DNA of 32,559 nt from a virus (IMGVR_UViG_2675903654_000020:1-32559); one strand, 5' to 3'; counted from the stretch's first letter, positions 1,364 through 8,047 are shown. Program-made: numbers and translations. Notes: generated from the letters alone by a model not told the origin.

Positions 1364-1504
1364 ATGCGAAAATTTAAAATAATTATCGAGACTGGAATAG
1401 CTTGTGAAAATTTCAAGGATGTATTTGAAGTGGATGATGATCTGACACCAGATGAAATTCATGACGAATACTGCAATTACTCATATCACGAAATAAAAGA
1501 CTAA
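1364..1504 (+). CDS. small ORF (46 aa), hypothetical
   Basis: ATG 1364 just after a GC hairpin (1339-1357); below the ORF-track length cutoff; AT-rich moron region. Confidence 0.2.
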   Translation: MRKFKIIIETGIACENFKDVFEVDDDLTPDEIHDEYCNYSYHEIKD

Positions 1505-1517
1505 GAGGAAGAATGAA

Positions 1518-1628
1518 ATGGCTTATTTTAGCTCCACTAAATATAGCGTCATTTTTGGAGAATGGCATGAACTGTTAATGGACTATGCAGAGTTACGTGG
1601 TAGAAGTGTTGCCGATGACGGAACATAA
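1518..1628 (+). CDS. small ORF (36 aa), hypothetical
   Basis: ATG 1518 with AAGAGGA RBS 8 nt upstream. Confidence 0.2.
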   Translation: MAYFSSTKYSVIFGEWHELLMDYAELRGRSVADDGT

Positions 1629-1721
1629 CGTGGTGTGAAGTTGCATAAGAAACTACTTTAATCGTCCGAAAAGAACATCGTTCTTAACGGCCAAGCAATA
1701 GAGAGTGGTGGTTATAATGAC

Positions 1722-1749
1722 CCCAACCCCGTATAATAAGGGGGTTGGG
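1722..1749 (-). terminator. GC-rich hairpin immediately downstream of the phosphatase gene (9-bp stem CCCAACCCC/GGGGTTGGG, no clear U-tract)
   Basis: Perfect inverted repeat 1722-1730 / 1741-1749 with 10-nt loop; sits about 45 bp past the stop of the minus-strand operon. Confidence 0.3.
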
Positions 1750-1793
1750 ATTAGTGTGGATAAATTAGAATCAATGTTTTTGATATCTAAAAA

Positions 1794-2510
1794 TTAGATT
1801 ACTTTTACGCCTATAAAGGTGTAATCATCCATTATGTTTTTCTCAATCCTTTTTCTTAAACTGTTCGCAAAAGACGTCGGTGAGAGCATTGTTTTCTCAG
1901 AAAACCTTGGTCTGACATCCCAATGCTTATAAGCACCATCGGACATTGCATAAATTTGAAGAGAACCATTAAAAATTAGTTGATTAATCGGAAAAGACAT
2001 TAATTCAAAATTCAGCTCTGTTGTATTTGATAAAGCATTTGTTAGGATTGAAGATAAACGCTCTTTATGATTTCTTAAATTGCGCAATTTATGCTCACCA
2101 GAATCAAGAAGTTCTTGATACCTCGTTTGATCAGTAGTTAACTGATTTAATTTGTTGTTTTTATTAAAGTATACACGGCAATCACCGGAATGGCCAATTA
2201 ACACTTCATTTTTTTTGATATGAACAATTGTTAATGTTGTGGCAGTGCTAATATCTAAATTATCAATTTCTTTTTTAGCCGAATGAAATGCACTTTCAAT
2301 TGAGAAAAAGGAAGTGTCTAGCGCGTGTTTAATACCACGAATGGCAGCATGAGACGCAAGCATTGAATTTTCAGAGGAACCAACGCCATCAGCTACTGCA
2401 AAGACAATGTTAAAATCGCTATCAAAAGATGGCGGTAAATAAAAGTCTTCATTTTCTTTTTTTTGGGGTTGTTTTAGGCTAAAACAAGCCATTTCAATTA
2501 TGTTCTTCAT
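1794..2510 (-). CDS. PP2C-family Ser/Thr protein phosphatase (238 aa)
   Basis: PP2C-like motifs: VADGVGS metal-binding Asp/Gly motif, GHSGDCRVY, MSDGAY, C-terminal DD; ATG with GAGGT RBS; overlaps kinase stop by 17 bp; AT-rich codon usage. Confidence 0.75.
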   Translation of the reverse strand: MKNIIEMACFSLKQPQKKENEDFYLPPSFDSDFNIVFAVADGVGSSENSMLASHAAIRGIKHALDTSFFSIESAFHSAKKEIDNLDISTATTLTIVHIKKNEVLIGHSGDCRVYFNKNNKLNQLTTDQTRYQELLDSGEHKLRNLRNHKERLSSILTNALSNTTELNFELMSFPINQLIFNGSLQIYAMSDGAYKHWDVRPRFSEKTMLSPTSFANSLRKRIEKNIMDDYTFIGVKVI

Positions 2511-3288
2511 TATTTACCTCCCCCATCACTTTTAAAAAATCTTCCAATAACTCCTGTGCGCTCTGATATCGTTCTTCAGGCCAATGGGCGCAACATTTAG
2601 CAATCAATCTTCTTAATTTTTCACTTCTTTCTGTTGGATATATATCAGTGATAATTTTGCCTATAGCGAATATGTCGCTTTGGAAAGAAAAAAGACCGCT
2701 CTCATGTATTTCAGGTGCTCGATATCCGTCTGTACCCATGTGATTGGGCTTAAATTTTGTTTTGACTTCAGCCCGTAGGGTATCTCTATCTTTTACCAGG
2801 CCAAAATCAGATATCTTATATTTCCCATCGGCGTAATAAAGGATGTTTCCTGGTTTTAAATCACGATGTATGTAGTTGTTTTCATGTATGGTGATAATTC
2901 CTTTTAAAATCTGAATGACAGCAGACTTCCTCTCTGCGTCATTCATTCCATTGTTGATGGCTTCATATAAGTTACATTCTGCCAGCTCCATGACAAAATA
3001 AGGTTTATCACCATTTGTATTAAACAAAACTATTGGTGCTATTGAATCATAGTTTATTCTATTGAGTTTGCATTGTGTTTTGATCTCAACTAAAAAACGC
3101 TGTCTTAAATCAGCCAGCTCTTTTATGGCTGTGTTGTCAAAGTCCGGGCAAGGTGAAAAGTATTTGCGAGCATATGTGGTCACGTTGGTCTGGGCTAAAT
3201 TATAGACTTCAACCTTATATACTTCGCCAAACCCCCCTCGTCCTAAACTGCGACCATCTTTAAGTAAATAATTACCGCACCGATCCAC
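2494..3288 (-). CDS. Hanks-type (eukaryotic-like) Ser/Thr protein kinase, kinase domain only (264 aa)
   Basis: Gly-rich loop GRGGFGEV, conserved Lys in ARK, catalytic loop HRDLKPGN, DFG (SDFGL), APE (YRAPE); GTG start with GGGGG RBS; AT-rich. Confidence 0.8.
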   Translation of the reverse strand: MDRCGNYLLKDGRSLGRGGFGEVYKVEVYNLAQTNVTTYARKYFSPCPDFDNTAIKELADLRQRFLVEIKTQCKLNRINYDSIAPIVLFNTNGDKPYFVMELAECNLYEAINNGMNDAERKSAVIQILKGIITIHENNYIHRDLKPGNILYYADGKYKISDFGLVKDRDTLRAEVKTKFKPNHMGTDGYRAPEIHESGLFSFQSDIFAIGKIITDIYPTERSEKLRRLIAKCCAHWPEERYQSAQELLEDFLKVMGEVNNEEHN

Positions 3289-3584
3289 GGCGCCCCCCTA
3301 ACTCTAAGTAATGGATTGATAAGACTGGAAAAACATATATATCTCCTTTTATACACGTTTGCTATTTTTATTGCAATGCTCCACCTGTGGAGGACCAGGA
3401 AGGGCGATATTCTGATGAGTCTTTAACTGATTGAATTCGCTCCGATGCGGGACTTCCCACATCGGGAGAACATTACCACTAGGGGTAAAAACGATTTGCG
3501 GGAAAAGGATAGTTAAGTAGAATTGCTGCGGGTGCTTGAGGCTATCTGTCTCAGGCATGCCACCAAAGGCAGATAGAGAAAAGC

Positions 3585-3650
3585 CCCAGTTAACATTACG
3601 CGTCCTGCAAGACGCTTAACATTAATCTGAGGCCAATTTCATGCCAGACA
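3585..3650 (-). ncRNA. predicted Sok-like antisense RNA of the hok locus (position approximate)
   Basis: Inferred from Hok/Sok family architecture (antisense RNA overlapping the mok start region); boundaries not resolved from sequence. Confidence 0.25.
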
Positions 3651-3853
3651 CATGTAGGTTAGCCTCTTACGTGCCGAAAGGCAAGGAGAAGCAGGCTATG
3701 AAGCAGCAAAAGGCGATGTTAATCGCCCTGATCGTCATCTGTTTAACCGTCATAGTGACGGCACTGGTAACGAGGAAAGACCTCTGCGAGGTACGAATCC
3801 GAACCGGCCAGACGGAGGTCGCTGTCTTCACAGCTTACGAACCTGAGGAGTAA
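3641..3853 (+). CDS. Mok-like overlapping reading frame of the hok locus
   Basis: ATG 3641 in frame with hok and ending at the same stop, as in hok/mok loci. Confidence 0.4.
   Translation: MPDTCRLASYVPKGKEKQAMKQQKAMLIALIVICLTVIVTALVTRKDLCEVRIRTGQTEVAVFTAYEPEE
3698..3853 (+). CDS. hokD: Hok-family type I toxin (51 aa), HokD/RelF-like
   Basis: Protein MKQQKAMLIALIVICLTVIVTALVTRKDLCEVRIRTGQTEVAVFTAYEPEE matches my recollection of HokD; single TM helix; leader homologous to hok mRNA; intrinsic terminator downstream. Confidence 0.8.
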   Translation: MKQQKAMLIALIVICLTVIVTALVTRKDLCEVRIRTGQTEVAVFTAYEPEE

Positions 3854-5302: not shown

Positions 5303-5853
5303 TTTACCCAACGAATACAGGAAAAAGCGGAGAACACCTTCGTCTCACCACGCTGGAAAGTGTCTGGATTCAGGGGAAACTGCGTATGTGGGGGCGCTGG
5401 TCGTATATTGGTGGCGGTAAGACGGGGAATATGTTTAACCAGATGTTGACCTCTAAAAAGCTGACAAAAACGGCAATTAACGAGGCGCTCCGGAGGATGA
5501 AAAAAGCAGGGCTGGACAAACCTGAACTTGAGGCTTTTTTGCGGGATATGATCAACGGCAAGCAAAAAAGCTGGCTGGTGCATTGTACTGATGCAGAGGC
5601 GTTATGCATTGATCGGGTGATTAGTGAAGTGCTGGCAGAACACCCAGGATTGATTTGTATCCTCCGGCAACGATATGAAGGGAGGGGGATGACTAAGCGA
5701 AAAATGGCTGAATTGCTGAATGGTTCACACCCTGAGTGGTGTTACGCCACGTGCCGTAATCGCATAGATGCGTGGTTGAAAATGGCAGAGTTTATGCTCT
5801 ATCTGCCGATGCGTGATGCATTCTCTTCCGGGGATCTAAAAACCGTCTGTTGA
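5299..5853 (+). CDS. late-gene antiterminator Q-like protein (184 aa)
   Basis: ATG 5299 with AAGGAAGG RBS, overlapping previous stop (ATGA); immediately followed by a near-consensus promoter and a terminator, the classic Q-pR'-tR' arrangement; family assignment by position and recollection, not by search. Confidence 0.55.
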   Translation: MIYPTNTGKSGEHLRLTTLESVWIQGKLRMWGRWSYIGGGKTGNMFNQMLTSKKLTKTAINEALRRMKKAGLDKPELEAFLRDMINGKQKSWLVHCTDAEALCIDRVISEVLAEHPGLICILRQRYEGRGMTKRKMAELLNGSHPEWCYATCRNRIDAWLKMAEFMLYLPMRDAFSSGDLKTVC

Positions 5854-5879
5854 CTCAATCTGTTATCCGGGGCTATATT
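5850..5879 (+). promoter_or_regulatory. candidate late promoter pR' (TTGACT -35, 18-bp spacer, TATATT -10)
   Basis: -35 TTGACT at 5850-5855 overlapping the Q stop codon, -10 TATATT at 5874-5879. Confidence 0.5.
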
Positions 5880-5940
5880 CCTCACGCGCCAGCAAAATCT
5901 GGCGTCGGGATTGGCGTCCTGGATAGAGACCGCGACAGAT

Positions 5941-5963
5941 ACACGCCGCGAGCGTGTTTTTTA
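5941..5963 (+). terminator. intrinsic terminator downstream of the candidate late promoter (tR'-like)
   Basis: Stem ACACGC / GCGTGT with 5-nt loop followed by TTTTTT. Confidence 0.55.
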
Positions 5964-6123
5964 TTGTCGTATGCACGCGCACATCTGAATTATGGTGGGC
6001 TGTGTGGGGGCGGAGAGATCCGCGCCGGTCGGTTTCCCGGTTACGCCAACCCTGCACAGTTCACCACCAGACGATTGGCGTCGTCGGTGGTGAGTTATTA
6101 AGAAACCACCAGAGGGCGTCATT

Positions 6124-6735
6124 ATGACAACTCAAATTTCTGTTGAAACTCTCTCCCCTATCACCCATAACCAGATTCCTGTTATTACCACCGAACTTTT
6201 GGCGCAGCTTTACGGCACTGAGCCGGTGCGTATTCGCCAGAATCATCATGAGAACAAAGCACGCTTCGTTGAAGGGAAACACTTTTTCAAAGTTGTTGGT
6301 AATGACCTTAAAGAATTGCGGGTAGCTTTAAACTACTCACAAAATTTGCGGGTTACTTTAAGTAACTCACAAAATTTGCAACCATCTTTAAGAGGGTTAC
6401 AAATTTCCCCGAAAGCCCGCTCCCTTATCCTCTGGACAGAACGAGGCGCAGCCCGTCACGCCAAAATGCTCGAAACCGATCAGGCGTGGGATGTGTTCGA
6501 AAAACTGGAAGACTGCTATTTCAGACAAAAGGATCTGTCAGCGCCAGCTTCATGCCAGAAAAGTTACGACACGCGAGTTCTCTGTTATCAGCGAGGCGGT
6601 GTCACTGTTTCCACAATTCAGTTGCGGGATGATGATATTGTTATTTCCCTTGAGTCATGGCTGGAACTGGCGAGAGCCAATGGTTGGTTTGTTGTTCGCA
6701 GAGATAAACTGGTGGAAAGGCTGATGCAGCTTTAA
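6124..6735 (+). CDS. ORF6N-domain (Bro-N/antirepressor-like) protein
   Basis: N-terminal ORF6N-like region (IPVITTELLAQLYGTEPVRIRQNHHENKARFVEGKHFFKV) and conserved LILWTERGAARHAKMLETDQAWDVFEKLE segment; ATG with AGAGGG RBS. Confidence 0.65.
   Translation: MTTQISVETLSPITHNQIPVITTELLAQLYGTEPVRIRQNHHENKARFVEGKHFFKVVGNDLKELRVALNYSQNLRVTLSNSQNLQPSLRGLQISPKARSLILWTERGAARHAKMLETDQAWDVFEKLEDCYFRQKDLSAPASCQKSYDTRVLCYQRGGVTVSTIQLRDDDIVISLESWLELARANGWFVVRRDKLVERLMQL
6318..6377 (+). repeat. two tandem 30-bp units (25/30 identical) inside the ORF6N gene, with a degenerate third copy to about 6406
   Basis: Units 6318-6347 and 6348-6377; each contains a near-palindrome (for example GTTAC-TTTAA-GTAAC); in frame, encoding a 10-aa repeat. 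Confidence 0.6.
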
Positions 6736-6830
6736 AAAAGTTCTTGCAATTTTAGCCATAAACTGCTTCAATTCCGGTACGCTTCGCAAAGCTGTATCGC
6801 GAGGCGAATCAAGCGCATGAACTTTACCAG

Positions 6831-6859
6831 AACCCGCCATTGAGCGGGTTTTGTTGTTT
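6831..6859 (+). terminator. intrinsic terminator after the ORF6N gene
   Basis: Stem CCCGC / GCGGG with CATTGA loop followed by a T-rich tract. Confidence 0.55.
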
Positions 6860-7082
6860 CTGACGGATAGAAAAATGAAATAGCTAAATAAAAAGAATGC
6901 ATTGGATGCCATATATTGGCAACGTGACGACAGCGTTAATCTGGTCGGGCTCCCATGGCGACGTAGTGAGGGAGAGGAAGCGTAAAGCATCACTGAGTTA
7001 CGGTTGGCACCCGGTTTAACGCGTAAGTAGCCTGATAAAGAGATAGTGCACCGCGGCACTCACAGCGGCAACGATTAACTGA

Positions 7083-7107
7083 CCTCGGCATTTGCCGGGG
7101 TTTTTTT
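7083..7107 (+). terminator. strong intrinsic terminator upstream of the lysis genes
   Basis: 7-bp GC-rich stem (CCTCGGC / GCCGGGG) with 4-nt loop followed by 7 T. Confidence 0.65.
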
Positions 7108-7207: not shown

Positions 7208-7567
7208 ATGTGCGAGGTGAGAGATGATGAAATGCCTCATAACCCAAATACCTGGCCGGACTGGCTGGAGTTGTTTCAGAGCTGGTGGCGTGGAGACACA
7301 CCGCTGGGTGCAGTGATTATGTCGATCGTTATGGCTGGTTTGCGCATCGCCTATTTTGGCGGTGGTGGGGGCTGGAAACGAAAAACGCTTGAGATTTTGC
7401 TCTGTGGTGCCCTGACGCTGACCTTTGCATCCGCGCTTGAGTATGTCGGATGGCCTAAATCACTTTCTGTTGCCATTGGTGGTGGGGTGGGGCTGATTGG
7501 TGTTGATGCTATTCGTGGTGCGGCAATGAGGGTCATCGGTAACAAGTTCGGTGCCCATAAGGAGTAA
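7208..7567 (+). CDS. phage holin, class I-like (3 predicted TM helices), possible dual start
   Basis: Three hydrophobic segments and a charged C-terminus; in-frame ATGs at 7208 and 7232 (the latter with GAGGTGA RBS); directly upstream of the endolysin. Confidence 0.7.
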   Translation: MCEVRDDEMPHNPNTWPDWLELFQSWWRGDTPLGAVIMSIVMAGLRIAYFGGGGGWKRKTLEILLCGALTLTFASALEYVGWPKSLSVAIGGGVGLIGVDAIRGAAMRVIGNKFGAHKE

Positions 7568-7570
7568 TTA

Positions 7571-8047
7571 ATGCAGACACTTAATTCCCAGCGTAAAGCT
7601 TTCCTTGATATGGTGGCATGGTCAGAAGGAACGGATAACGGGCGACAACCGACACGTAACCACGGTTATGATGTTATTGTTGGTGGCGAACTGTTCACTG
7701 ATTACTCCGATCACCCTCGCAAACTTGTCACGCTAAATCCGAAACTCAAATCAACAGCCGCCGGACGTTACCAGCTTCTTTCACGCTGGTGGGATGCCTA
7801 CCGCAAGCAACTTGGTCTGAAAGATTTTTCTCCAGAAAGCCAGGATGCTGTAGCGCTGCAGCAGATTAAAGAGCGTGGCGCTTTACCGATGATTGACCGC
7901 GGCGATATTCGTCAGGCAATCGACCGTTGCAGCAATATCTGGGCGTCGTTACCTGGTGCAGGTTACGGTCAGTATGAACATAGAATCGGTGACCTGATTT
8001 CCCGATTTAAAGAAGCTGGTGGGGTGGTAAATGAAGCTGAGATATAA
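7571..8047 (+). CDS. R: endolysin, lambda R-type lytic transglycosylase
   Basis: Near-identical over most of its length to phage lambda R as I recall it (QRKAFLDM..WSEGTDNGRQ..TRNHGYDVIVGGELFTDYSDHPRKLVTLNPKLKST..). Confidence 0.9.
   Translation: MQTLNSQRKAFLDMVAWSEGTDNGRQPTRNHGYDVIVGGELFTDYSDHPRKLVTLNPKLKSTAAGRYQLLSRWWDAYRKQLGLKDFSPESQDAVALQQIKERGALPMIDRGDIRQAIDRCSNIWASLPGAGYGQYEHRIGDLISRFKEAGGVVNEAEI

Follow-up and report, generated by a model that had tools for sequence, protein, structure and literature searches.

Viral DNA of 32,559 nucleotides (IMGVR_UViG_2675903654_000020:1-32559), the whole of which is referred to here as the window, carries on its + strand an ORF6N-domain, AnrP-like antirepressor gene of 203 codons (6124-6735), and this gene holds three 30-nt units repeated in tandem and in frame, each with a palindrome as its body. 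This palindrome is a conserved, covarying element of the whole ORF6N family and is not peculiar to the repeat in the window. The gene was recognised from the list of open reading frames (ORFs), Pfam and PHROG; its product matches the Pfam family PF10543 (ORF6N) at 69.8 bits against a cut-off of 27.8, with residues 12-115 on profile positions 3-86, and PHROG 2379, anti-repressor, with an E-value of 6e-92. An identical gene is found in Escherichia coli AH19B041, where it is labelled 'ORF6N domain-containing protein', and the N-domain of the window protein is 82-84% identical to that of Salmonella proteins of 185 amino acids. Antirepressor activity of the window protein is putative, on the basis of homology to the PHROG family and to these Salmonella proteins.

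Three palindromic units in the ORF6N gene of the window

Tandem Repeats Finder reported a repeat at 6316-6379 with a score of 93 (period 30, 2.1 copies, 85% matches); a further row, at 6335-6392 with 78% matches, overlaps it. The units are placed at 6316-6345 (U1, amino acids 65-74, LRVALNYSQN), 6346-6375 (U2, amino acids 75-84, LRVTLSNSQN) and 6376-6405 (U3, amino acids 85-94, LQPSLRGLQI); U1 and U2 are identical at 25 of 30 positions and U3 agrees with each of them at 18 of 30. An earlier note on this DNA had described a real, in-frame and palindromic repeat here, which is borne out with the register of the units 2 nt further to the left (6316 vs 6318), and the decapeptides RVALNYSQNL and RVTLSNSQNL that it gave are correct in its own frame.

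Each unit contains a dyad of 27 nt, which was scored as the number of Watson-Crick pairs out of 13. The dyad of U1 (6316-6342, centre 6329) has the form TTGCGGGTAGCTT-T-AAACTACTCACAA and pairs at 10 of 13 positions, that of U2 (6346-6372, centre 6359) pairs at 11 of 13 and includes the perfect 15-nt core GTTACTTTAAGTAAC, and that of U3 (6376-6402, centre 6389) also pairs at 11 of 13, around the core AACCATCTT-T-AAGAGGGTT. The near-palindrome GTTAC-TTTAA-GTAAC reported earlier for the second unit is present at 6352-6366, but it is only the core of the larger 27-nt dyad. All five differences between U1 and U2 sit in the dyad arms, where two pairs of changes are compensatory, and between U2 and U3 five pairs are altered on both sides, four of which are still paired. 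The outermost arms end in self-complementary AAA(A)TTT, as at the unit junction CAAAATTTGCGGG (6340-6352), and each unit is therefore bracketed by a short direct repeat 30 nt apart.

Positions with at least 10 of 13 pairs number 10 in the 32.5-kb window, against 4.8 expected from shuffles, and three of these 10 are U1, U2 and U3 at an exact 30-nt spacing. Taken alone, the window's best palindrome does not reach significance against a shuffle of synonymous codons (p=0.11); its significance comes from the three dyads in register and from comparison across the family.

A palindrome conserved across the ORF6N family

Relatives were drawn from about 70 species in a collection with one genome per species. 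Most ORF6N relatives carry a single motif in the loop, which is nearly always encoded by a palindrome of differing sequence, such as CCGAGCAGAGGGTCTTAAAGACCCTCTGCTCGG in Roseospira (16 bp, perfect) or the palindromes of 17 bp in an Acinetobacter metagenome-assembled genome and of 15 bp in Chromatium. The dyad has a fixed place, at the end of helix 3 and in the loop after it, which is 40-60 nt upstream of the conserved (LW)TE(R)G motif. Independent tandem expansions were seen in Pectobacterium, Symbiopectobacterium (about four units), Xenorhabdus and Citrobacter, and the palindromic element explains why this loop is a hotspot of in-frame expansions in several lineages.

A register taken from the protein alignment could not be used, because the position of the dyad shifts by 1-2 codons with respect to either flank, and a position-blind scan of the N-domain region of about 450 nt was used instead. 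The strongest 27-nt dyad fell in the loop in 125 of 131 distinct proteobacterial genes and in the equivalent loop in 47 of 47 genes of the Bacteroidota type. Complementarity spans positions +-1 to +-13 and is at background level at +-14; in the proteobacterial type, 59 of 84 dyads are centred on a second codon position. When pairs were counted formally over 82 distinct proteobacterial sequences, 84% of cells were paired, where shuffling gave 57% and sliding the partner 31-42%; changes on both sides occurred at each of the 13 pairs, and the covariation score was 0.63 vs 0.21, a score reached by 0 of 500 shuffles. The Bacteroidota-type set was gathered with a query sequence, 194 matches to which were confirmed by tblastn, and shows 88% of cells paired vs 76% in shuffles (0/500). 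Examples are GTTTGAGGTCACAAATTGTGACCTCAAAC and TTGAGGTGCCAAATTGGCACCTCAA, with the protein reading RSQIVT, RCQIGT, RFQIGT or RSQIAS.

Since the arms are both coding and covarying, they dictate the amino acids of the loop through reverse-complement codon pairs, and the residue pairs around the centre follow this rule (L-Q, V-N, V-Y, V-D, L-E, L-K, M-H, V-H, T-S and S-R). When synonymous codons were shuffled with the amino acids kept, the natural palindrome was better at p<=0.01 in 27 of 76 distinct genes, where about 0.8 would be expected, and at p<=0.05 in 40 of 76. The element is thus conserved as a palindrome and not as a sequence, and most genes carry one unit.

Two further observations concern the same loop. 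Residues 99-122 of the window protein, RSLILWTERGAARHAKMLETDQAW, are almost invariant from E. coli to relatives in Acinetobacter, Chromatium and Desulfovibrio, and the N-terminal half is variable, so that there is an unusually sharp conservation boundary right after the palindrome. In an IMG/VR contig with a Bacteroidota-type ORF6N gene (L154), the LRSQ motif is duplicated (ESLRSQIMTAERGTEDETNLRSQFVTS), which indicates that expansion of the loop also occurs in the distant branch.

Copy number and origin of the units

A megablast search of 5,426 complete E. coli genomes found the gene or its N-module in 936, with match lengths that differ by multiples of 30. The suggestion that copy number varies among homologous prophages proved right, as alleles with 1, 2, 3 and 4 units were found. 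The VT2-Sakai ant gene (L005) has the same arrangement as the window, two alleles (L001 and L004) have one full unit plus the third unit, E. coli O157 FDAARGOS_293 (L003) has an extra U2, and E. coli 2014C-3599 (L002) and Salmonella have the short form with U1 only. U2 is missing from the 2-unit alleles and doubled in the 4-unit alleles, and U3 is missing from the short alleles (a 24-nt difference); aligned at the DNA level, the alleles differ by clean 30-nt steps plus one 24-nt step. The same series of unit numbers was seen in 80 phage contigs, and among 120 protein clusters the segment from HFFK to LWTE measures 28, 36, 38, 46 or 56 residues. Whether the repeat is an insertion was a question raised in the earlier note, and by comparison with the ORF6N family the extra units are indeed inserted: 104 residues cover 84 Pfam profile positions, with about 20 surplus residues that correspond to the added units, and most relatives have the one-unit form. 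The N-module is common to proteins with different C-termini, VT2-Sakai ant being among its carriers. The plain alternative named in the earlier note, a single, non-palindromic copy in the homologues with no variation in number, is not what was found; single copies exist, but they are palindromic, and the number of copies varies.

The copies lie head to tail and their number is polymorphic between strains, as in a variable-number tandem repeat (VNTR), but the units are not derived from one another by duplication, the U2-U2 pair of the 4-unit alleles being the only exception. A recent duplication, which had been offered as one origin of the repeat, therefore applies only to this pair in O157 strains, since U1, U2 and U3 are three different palindrome classes that occur as sole units elsewhere.

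In E. coli O157 FDAARGOS_293, three consecutive antirepressor genes are found at 1501-3437 of locus L003, namely an ORF6N gene with 4 units, an ORF6N-P22AR_C gene with a different palindrome (CACAGCATGTCTTTAAGACCTTCTGTG) and a KilAC/roi-type gene. The junction between its identical units is itself a dyad (centre 1751, 11/13), which makes alternative hairpins possible in arrays. In E. coli 2014C-3599, the one-unit ORF6N allele (L002, 1501-2292) carries the annotation of a truncated pseudogene, and the next gene is one for tRNA-Met, a downstream context that differs from that of the window.

Fold of the ORF6N domain and association of the arms with the putative recognition helix

An AlphaFold model built with diverse members from a profile search reached a pLDDT (predicted local distance difference test) of 77; a model from 28 close homologues alone (pLDDT 41) was discarded. 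The model has a helix-turn-helix (HTH)-like fold, from which the extra units are looped out in a low-confidence segment that is predicted to be disordered. A Foldseek comparison of the model with the PDB returned nothing significant. The second helix of the HTH-like pair, PVRIRQNHHE (codons 34-43; 6223-6252, +), is the putative DNA-recognition helix.

In a comparison of 94 distinct genes, residues 35-46, a stretch that overlaps this helix, showed a correlation with the inner arm of the first dyad (Mantel r 0.42, partial 0.37); for the equally variable segment directly between the helix and the dyad, the correlation with that arm was close to nil (r 0.10, partial -0.01). The arm is less well correlated with nearer segments than with residues 35-46, and a stronger tie to the distant helix than to nearer segments is the opposite of the order that plain linkage predicts.

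Multi-unit genes have exactly one unit of the class that is found with their own helix in genes carrying a single unit. For the window, mismatches to the units of single-unit genes with the same helix are 0/19 for U1, 5/19 for U2 and 8/19 for U3. U2 has 0/19 mismatches to the sole unit of other genes (Izhakiella L007 and the L042/L043 type), and U3 has 0/19 to the sole unit of the 'PSLRG'-class genes; in L004, the order is reversed. Because U2 and U3 are identical to the sole units of genes with other helices, the arrays are shown to be composites of units from different paralogues, plus occasional true duplications such as U2-U2 in O157.

Symmetry at the level of DNA or RNA

The 111-nt array folds better than dinucleotide shuffles on both strands, with -29.2 kcal/mol (z -4.1) for the sense strand and -34.9 kcal/mol (z -4.7) for the antisense strand, the latter as three clean hairpins. 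Over positions 1-13, mismatches of the G.T and A.C kinds are balanced (45 vs 56), with no strand-specific tolerance of G-U, and non-standard pairs make up about 16% of cells compared with about 4.5% for G-U pairs. The dyad continues through the centre in 43 of 84 cases, and complementarity is seen in 62% of cases at +-1 and in 82% at +-2, positions that no hairpin could pair. At 6300-6410, neither strand has a promoter-like site for an antisense RNA, a terminator-like site or a U-tract, and no Rfam family matches the array at its gathering score, the best matches in E-value mode being 15-19 bits against thresholds of 49-172. Taken together, the balanced mismatches, the dyad that runs through its centre and the lack of promoter, terminator and Rfam match speak for a constraint on the symmetry of double-stranded DNA, or for a process at the DNA level, rather than for a strand-specific RNA.

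An intragenic dyad in the Phage_pRha/Roi family

A second family of antirepressor genes has a dyad of its own. Among 42 distinct sequences of the neighbouring roi-type genes, which encode Phage_pRha plus KilAC, 40 have their best dyad about 138-141 nt into the gene. Its inner arms covary (CCTGCA/TGCAGG, CCTCAA/TTGAGG, CCCCCA/TGGTGG) within outer TTCC...GGAA, and the loop is palindromic in distant relatives as well, among them SSU5 (TTTTCCACCAATGGTGGAAAA, 10/10), a Pseudomonas phage, ICP1, KpV79, Vibrio phages and APSE-7. The roi gene of VT2-Sakai is found at 3304-4032 of L005, and the dyad of the roi family was surveyed across L246-L334. The Roi protein of phage HK022 reportedly binds to a part of the roi gene itself that neighbours an IHF site. 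The dyad of HK022 roi is found at about 34,790 of NC_002166. Papers that cite Clerget & Boccard 1996 gave no coordinates for the Roi site. Roi and the ORF6N protein belong to the class with an N-terminal DNA-binding domain and an antirepressor C-domain, and their genes share the nin-region neighbourhood and a covarying intragenic dyad; Roi differs in the family of its N-domain, and no tandem arrays were seen in roi.

Genomic setting

The ORF6N gene lies between a Q-like (DUF1133) gene that ends at 5853 and the lysis genes, here a holin gene (7208-7567) and a lysozyme gene (7571-8047). This is the position of stx in Shiga toxin (Stx) phages, and the placement of the repeat in that slot by the earlier note was accurate. 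In L001 and L002, the annotation of the same Q-like gene reads DUF1133 family protein. Between it and the ORF6N gene, Rfam matches on the + strand were found for c4-a1b1 (5873-5925), isrK (5886-5962, 75.5 bits vs 50) and the C4 antisense RNA (5988-6071), with a promoter-like site at 5850-5879 and a terminator at 5941-5957 for isrK. A small ORF on the + strand (5954-6127) has a stop codon that overlaps the ORF6N start, as ATGA over the ATG at 6124.

This arrangement is that of the Gifsy-1 antQ-isrK-orf45-anrP locus, where RNA in the 5' region controls translation and a small ORF has an AUGA overlap (Hershko-Shalev et al. 2016, PMC4825925). Both loci have a Q-like gene, an isrK RNA, a small ORF that ends in ATGA over the next start and an AnrP-like ORF6N gene, and the 185-aa proteins of Salmonella are the one-unit form of the same gene that has three units in the E. 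coli window. No mention of an internal palindrome or of repeats is made in PMC4825925. The region named orf45 in Gifsy-1 scores as a P1-type C4 RNA, which links the isrK system to the design of P1 immI (c4-icd-ant).

The 470-nt gap between the ORF6N and holin genes contains two strong terminator-like hairpins on the + strand (6828-6853 and 7081-7102); it corresponds to the slot of the small RNA isrJ in Gifsy-1, and no Rfam match was found there in the window. A sok antitoxin RNA at 3530-3703 (+; Rfam RF01794, 118 bits vs 59) implies a hok/sok-type toxin-antitoxin module in the nin region of the prophage. Further dyads scoring 10-11 of 13 are centred in the window at 1735 (CCCAACCCCGTATAATAAGGGGGTTGG), 1898, 2478 (GGGGTTGTTTTAGGCTAAAACAAGCCA) and 4068, and these may be terminators or operators of the early region.

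A possible operator within the coding sequence, and other explanations

The pattern across the family points, tentatively and with a little less than an even chance of being right, to the dyad as the DNA site of the encoded ORF6N domain, a putative winged HTH, through which the gene would be controlled autogenously or in cis; a protein-binding operator had also been suggested in the earlier note. The palindrome would serve as a double-stranded site for a dimer of the domain, which is encoded about 90 nt upstream in the same gene, and would thereby restrain a gene whose leaky expression would induce the prophage; the specificity of the protein and its site would be kept inseparable in mosaic phage genomes. 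In the window, U1 alone would be cognate for the encoded protein, with U2 and U3 as passenger sites for other paralogues. Whole in-frame units could be gained and lost at the AAATTT direct repeats, through slippage or through unequal recombination of co-resident ORF6N paralogues. An operator is supported by the position of the dyad, its covariation, the synonymous shuffle, the defined extent of +-13 and the symmetry at the DNA level, and also by the arms that track the helix, the one cognate unit per array, the separate dyad in Phage_pRha/Roi, the reported binding of HK022 Roi to its own gene and the copy-number series with clean 30-nt indels.

Several points weigh against this interpretation. 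No binding experiment is known for any ORF6N protein. The arms differ between the units of one gene (GTAGC, GTTAC and AACCATC), and one protein can therefore not read all three sequence-specifically. Uniform complementarity of about 13 bp per arm exceeds a typical operator half-site and looks more like base-pairing, and the conserved part is the AT-rich centre (CTTTAAG) and not the outer half-sites. No excess of half-sites was found in the 1.5-kb flanks of 37 loci (26 observed vs 25.8 expected), and further half-site copies did not exceed chance elsewhere in the window. The correlation between helix and arm could still reflect linkage plus homoplasy in the control segment. Centres for the formal pair counts were picked by maximal dyad score, a caveat that is answered by the position-blind scan. 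The codon phase of the dyad differs between branches, with the centre on the first base in the Bacteroidota type (by reading of the sequences) and on the second in the proteobacterial type, a one-nucleotide shift which indicates that palindromy is kept and not that bases are inherited one by one. Finally, the palindrome has been lost in some homologues (L029, L030, L048, L055-57, L059, L073 and L075) and is thus not indispensable.

An explanation at the RNA level, which we regard as unlikely, is that selection acts on a stem-loop which the palindrome forms in the mRNA or an antisense transcript and which keeps antirepressor synthesis low, by slowing ribosomes or by offering an entry for RNase III or RNase E or a binding site for a protein, an effect that three tandem hairpins would strengthen. 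The folding of the array on both strands agrees with this, as does covariation over 13 pairs of variable sequence, by which base-paired structures are classically recognised, and the AT-rich centre would act as the loop. Antirepressor genes are, moreover, typically controlled by RNA, and isrK and C4 lie just upstream (PMC4825925). Against a hairpin stand the equal frequency of G.U-type and A.C-type mismatches, by which neither strand is favoured as RNA, an excess of non-standard pairs far above that of G-U, complementarity at the unpairable positions +-1 and +-2 and the lack of an antisense promoter-like site, a U-tract terminator or an Rfam family at the array; the way in which the arms track the HTH helix would also be left unexplained. 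Selection may, on the other hand, play no part at all, if in a tolerant loop template-switch errors re-perfect a functionless quasi-palindrome and hairpin slippage builds the arrays, an account that seems rather unlikely. Correction of quasi-palindromes is an established mutational mechanism in E. coli, and it would fit with changes that cluster in the arms as multi-base compensatory sets, with the many palindromes that are perfect right through the centre, with a loop that tolerates 10-30 extra residues predicted to be disordered and with the decay of the palindrome in some lineages. It is difficult to reconcile with a dyad that persists in one loop across Bacteroidota and Proteobacteria, with an independent case in the pRha family, that always ends at +-13, a defined and not a drifting length, that uses rare codons and forces amino-acid changes, and whose arm class correlates with a distant HTH helix and not with the adjacent segment.

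That the dyad is read for its structure or as a core site, by a recombinase, a resolvase or a nuclease that recognises a cruciform or hairpin, and marks a hotspot of module exchange among the antirepressor genes of the 'Bro network', appears improbable. The arrays demonstrably combine units of different paralogues in recombinant stacks, one and the same N-module occurs with different C-termini, 13-bp arms around an AT-rich centre resemble classical cruciform-forming repeats, and many E. coli megablast matches start or stop at the repeat edges (e.g., query 1-190 or 278-612 only); these breakpoints may, however, just reflect the hypervariability of the loop that joins a variable N-half to a C-half which hardly varies. 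The exchange of C-termini, moreover, takes place at the domain boundary, and the dyad is internal to the ORF6N domain, with no recombinase consistently linked to it. An ordinary minisatellite at the protein level, that is, a linker of variable copy number with palindromes incidental to the peptide, would account for the gain and loss of in-frame units and for the predicted disorder of the extra ones. It is very improbable and is contradicted by the synonymous reshuffling, which destroys the palindromes in far more genes than expected; in addition, pairing requires AGT for the first serine and TCT for the second in the R-V-T-x-S-x-S-V motif, and these are the codons in use, and residue pairs obey the reverse-complement codon rule.

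Known elements of other kinds were also compared with the array. The orientation of a LexA box is not that seen here (ACAG...CTGT, inverted relative to CTGT...ACAG), a -1 frameshift site (U_UUA_AAC) is present in U1 only, the units lack the spacers of a CRISPR array, and no GC-rich stem with a U-tract, as in an intrinsic terminator, was found on either strand at 6300-6410. IHF sites, boxB-like hairpins, gix-like invertase sites, repetitive extragenic palindromic (REP) elements and loci of multilocus VNTR analysis do not fit either.

Relation to known systems

A close likeness to a dyad that would serve the encoded ORF6N protein as its site is the replication origin of phage lambda, whose iterons lie inside gene O. 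Those iterons, too, are tandem, regularly spaced and imperfectly palindromic units of about 20-30 bp, in frame in the coding sequence of a lambdoid phage, and the protein that reads them, through its N-terminal DNA-binding domain, has a flexible segment encoded by these same iterons, so that site and specificity travel together in mosaic genomes. The lambda iterons, however, share one consensus and are followed by an AT-rich unwinding region, and O is a replication initiator. The array in the window has arms that differ, with no shared consensus half-site and no AT-rich tract after it, in a gene for an ORF6N protein and not for an O- or DnaA-like initiator; most members of its family have a single unit, and binding of the protein to its own site is a prediction.

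Bacterial in-frame VNTRs resemble the array in their head-to-tail units with a length that is a multiple of three, in strain polymorphism and in clean steps of gain and loss, but the units of the window are differing alleles of a conserved palindrome, partly stacked from paralogues. In attC sites, REP hairpins and the stem-loops targeted by antisense RNAs, structure or symmetry is likewise kept while sequence varies; these elements, however, are intergenic or lie at the ends of cassettes, whereas the ORF6N dyad is found within the coding sequence of a domain, without strand asymmetry and without an associated integrase or transposase. Sites inside the gene of the protein that reads them are already known, from lambda ori in gene O and reportedly from Roi, and in-frame VNTRs are ordinary. 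Literature searches on ORF6N, on antirepressor with palindrome and on KilA-N/Bro-N with palindromic returned no description of the element, and we found no earlier account of a palindrome that is kept by covariation in the coding sequence of a domain across phyla, that dictates the residues of a loop and that is sometimes arrayed.

Implications

Antirepressors decide between silence and induction of a prophage, including Shiga-toxin phages that carry the same N-module (VT2-Sakai ant), and a conserved cis-element hidden in their coding sequence would be an unrecognised control point. In a wider scheme, which is quite unlikely to hold as a whole, the N-domains of the 'Bro network', that is, ORF6N and independently pRha/Roi, would each carry their own intragenic operator, with helix and dyad as a co-evolving cassette, and stacked heterologous units would permit a response across prophages. 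If this were true, the antirepressor gene of the window would answer to the ORF6N proteins of co-resident prophages, and a cross-prophage induction network would exist in polylysogenic E. coli such as enterohaemorrhagic E. coli. Part of what is read as a 'conserved protein motif' of the Pfam domain would then really be a DNA element. The number and order of the units provide a simple marker that separates otherwise very similar lambdoid prophages. The constraint on the loop itself bears on how the conserved motif of the ORF6N Pfam family is read, and the family offers a clean natural case of a nucleic-acid constraint that dictates the amino acids of a protein loop across phyla.

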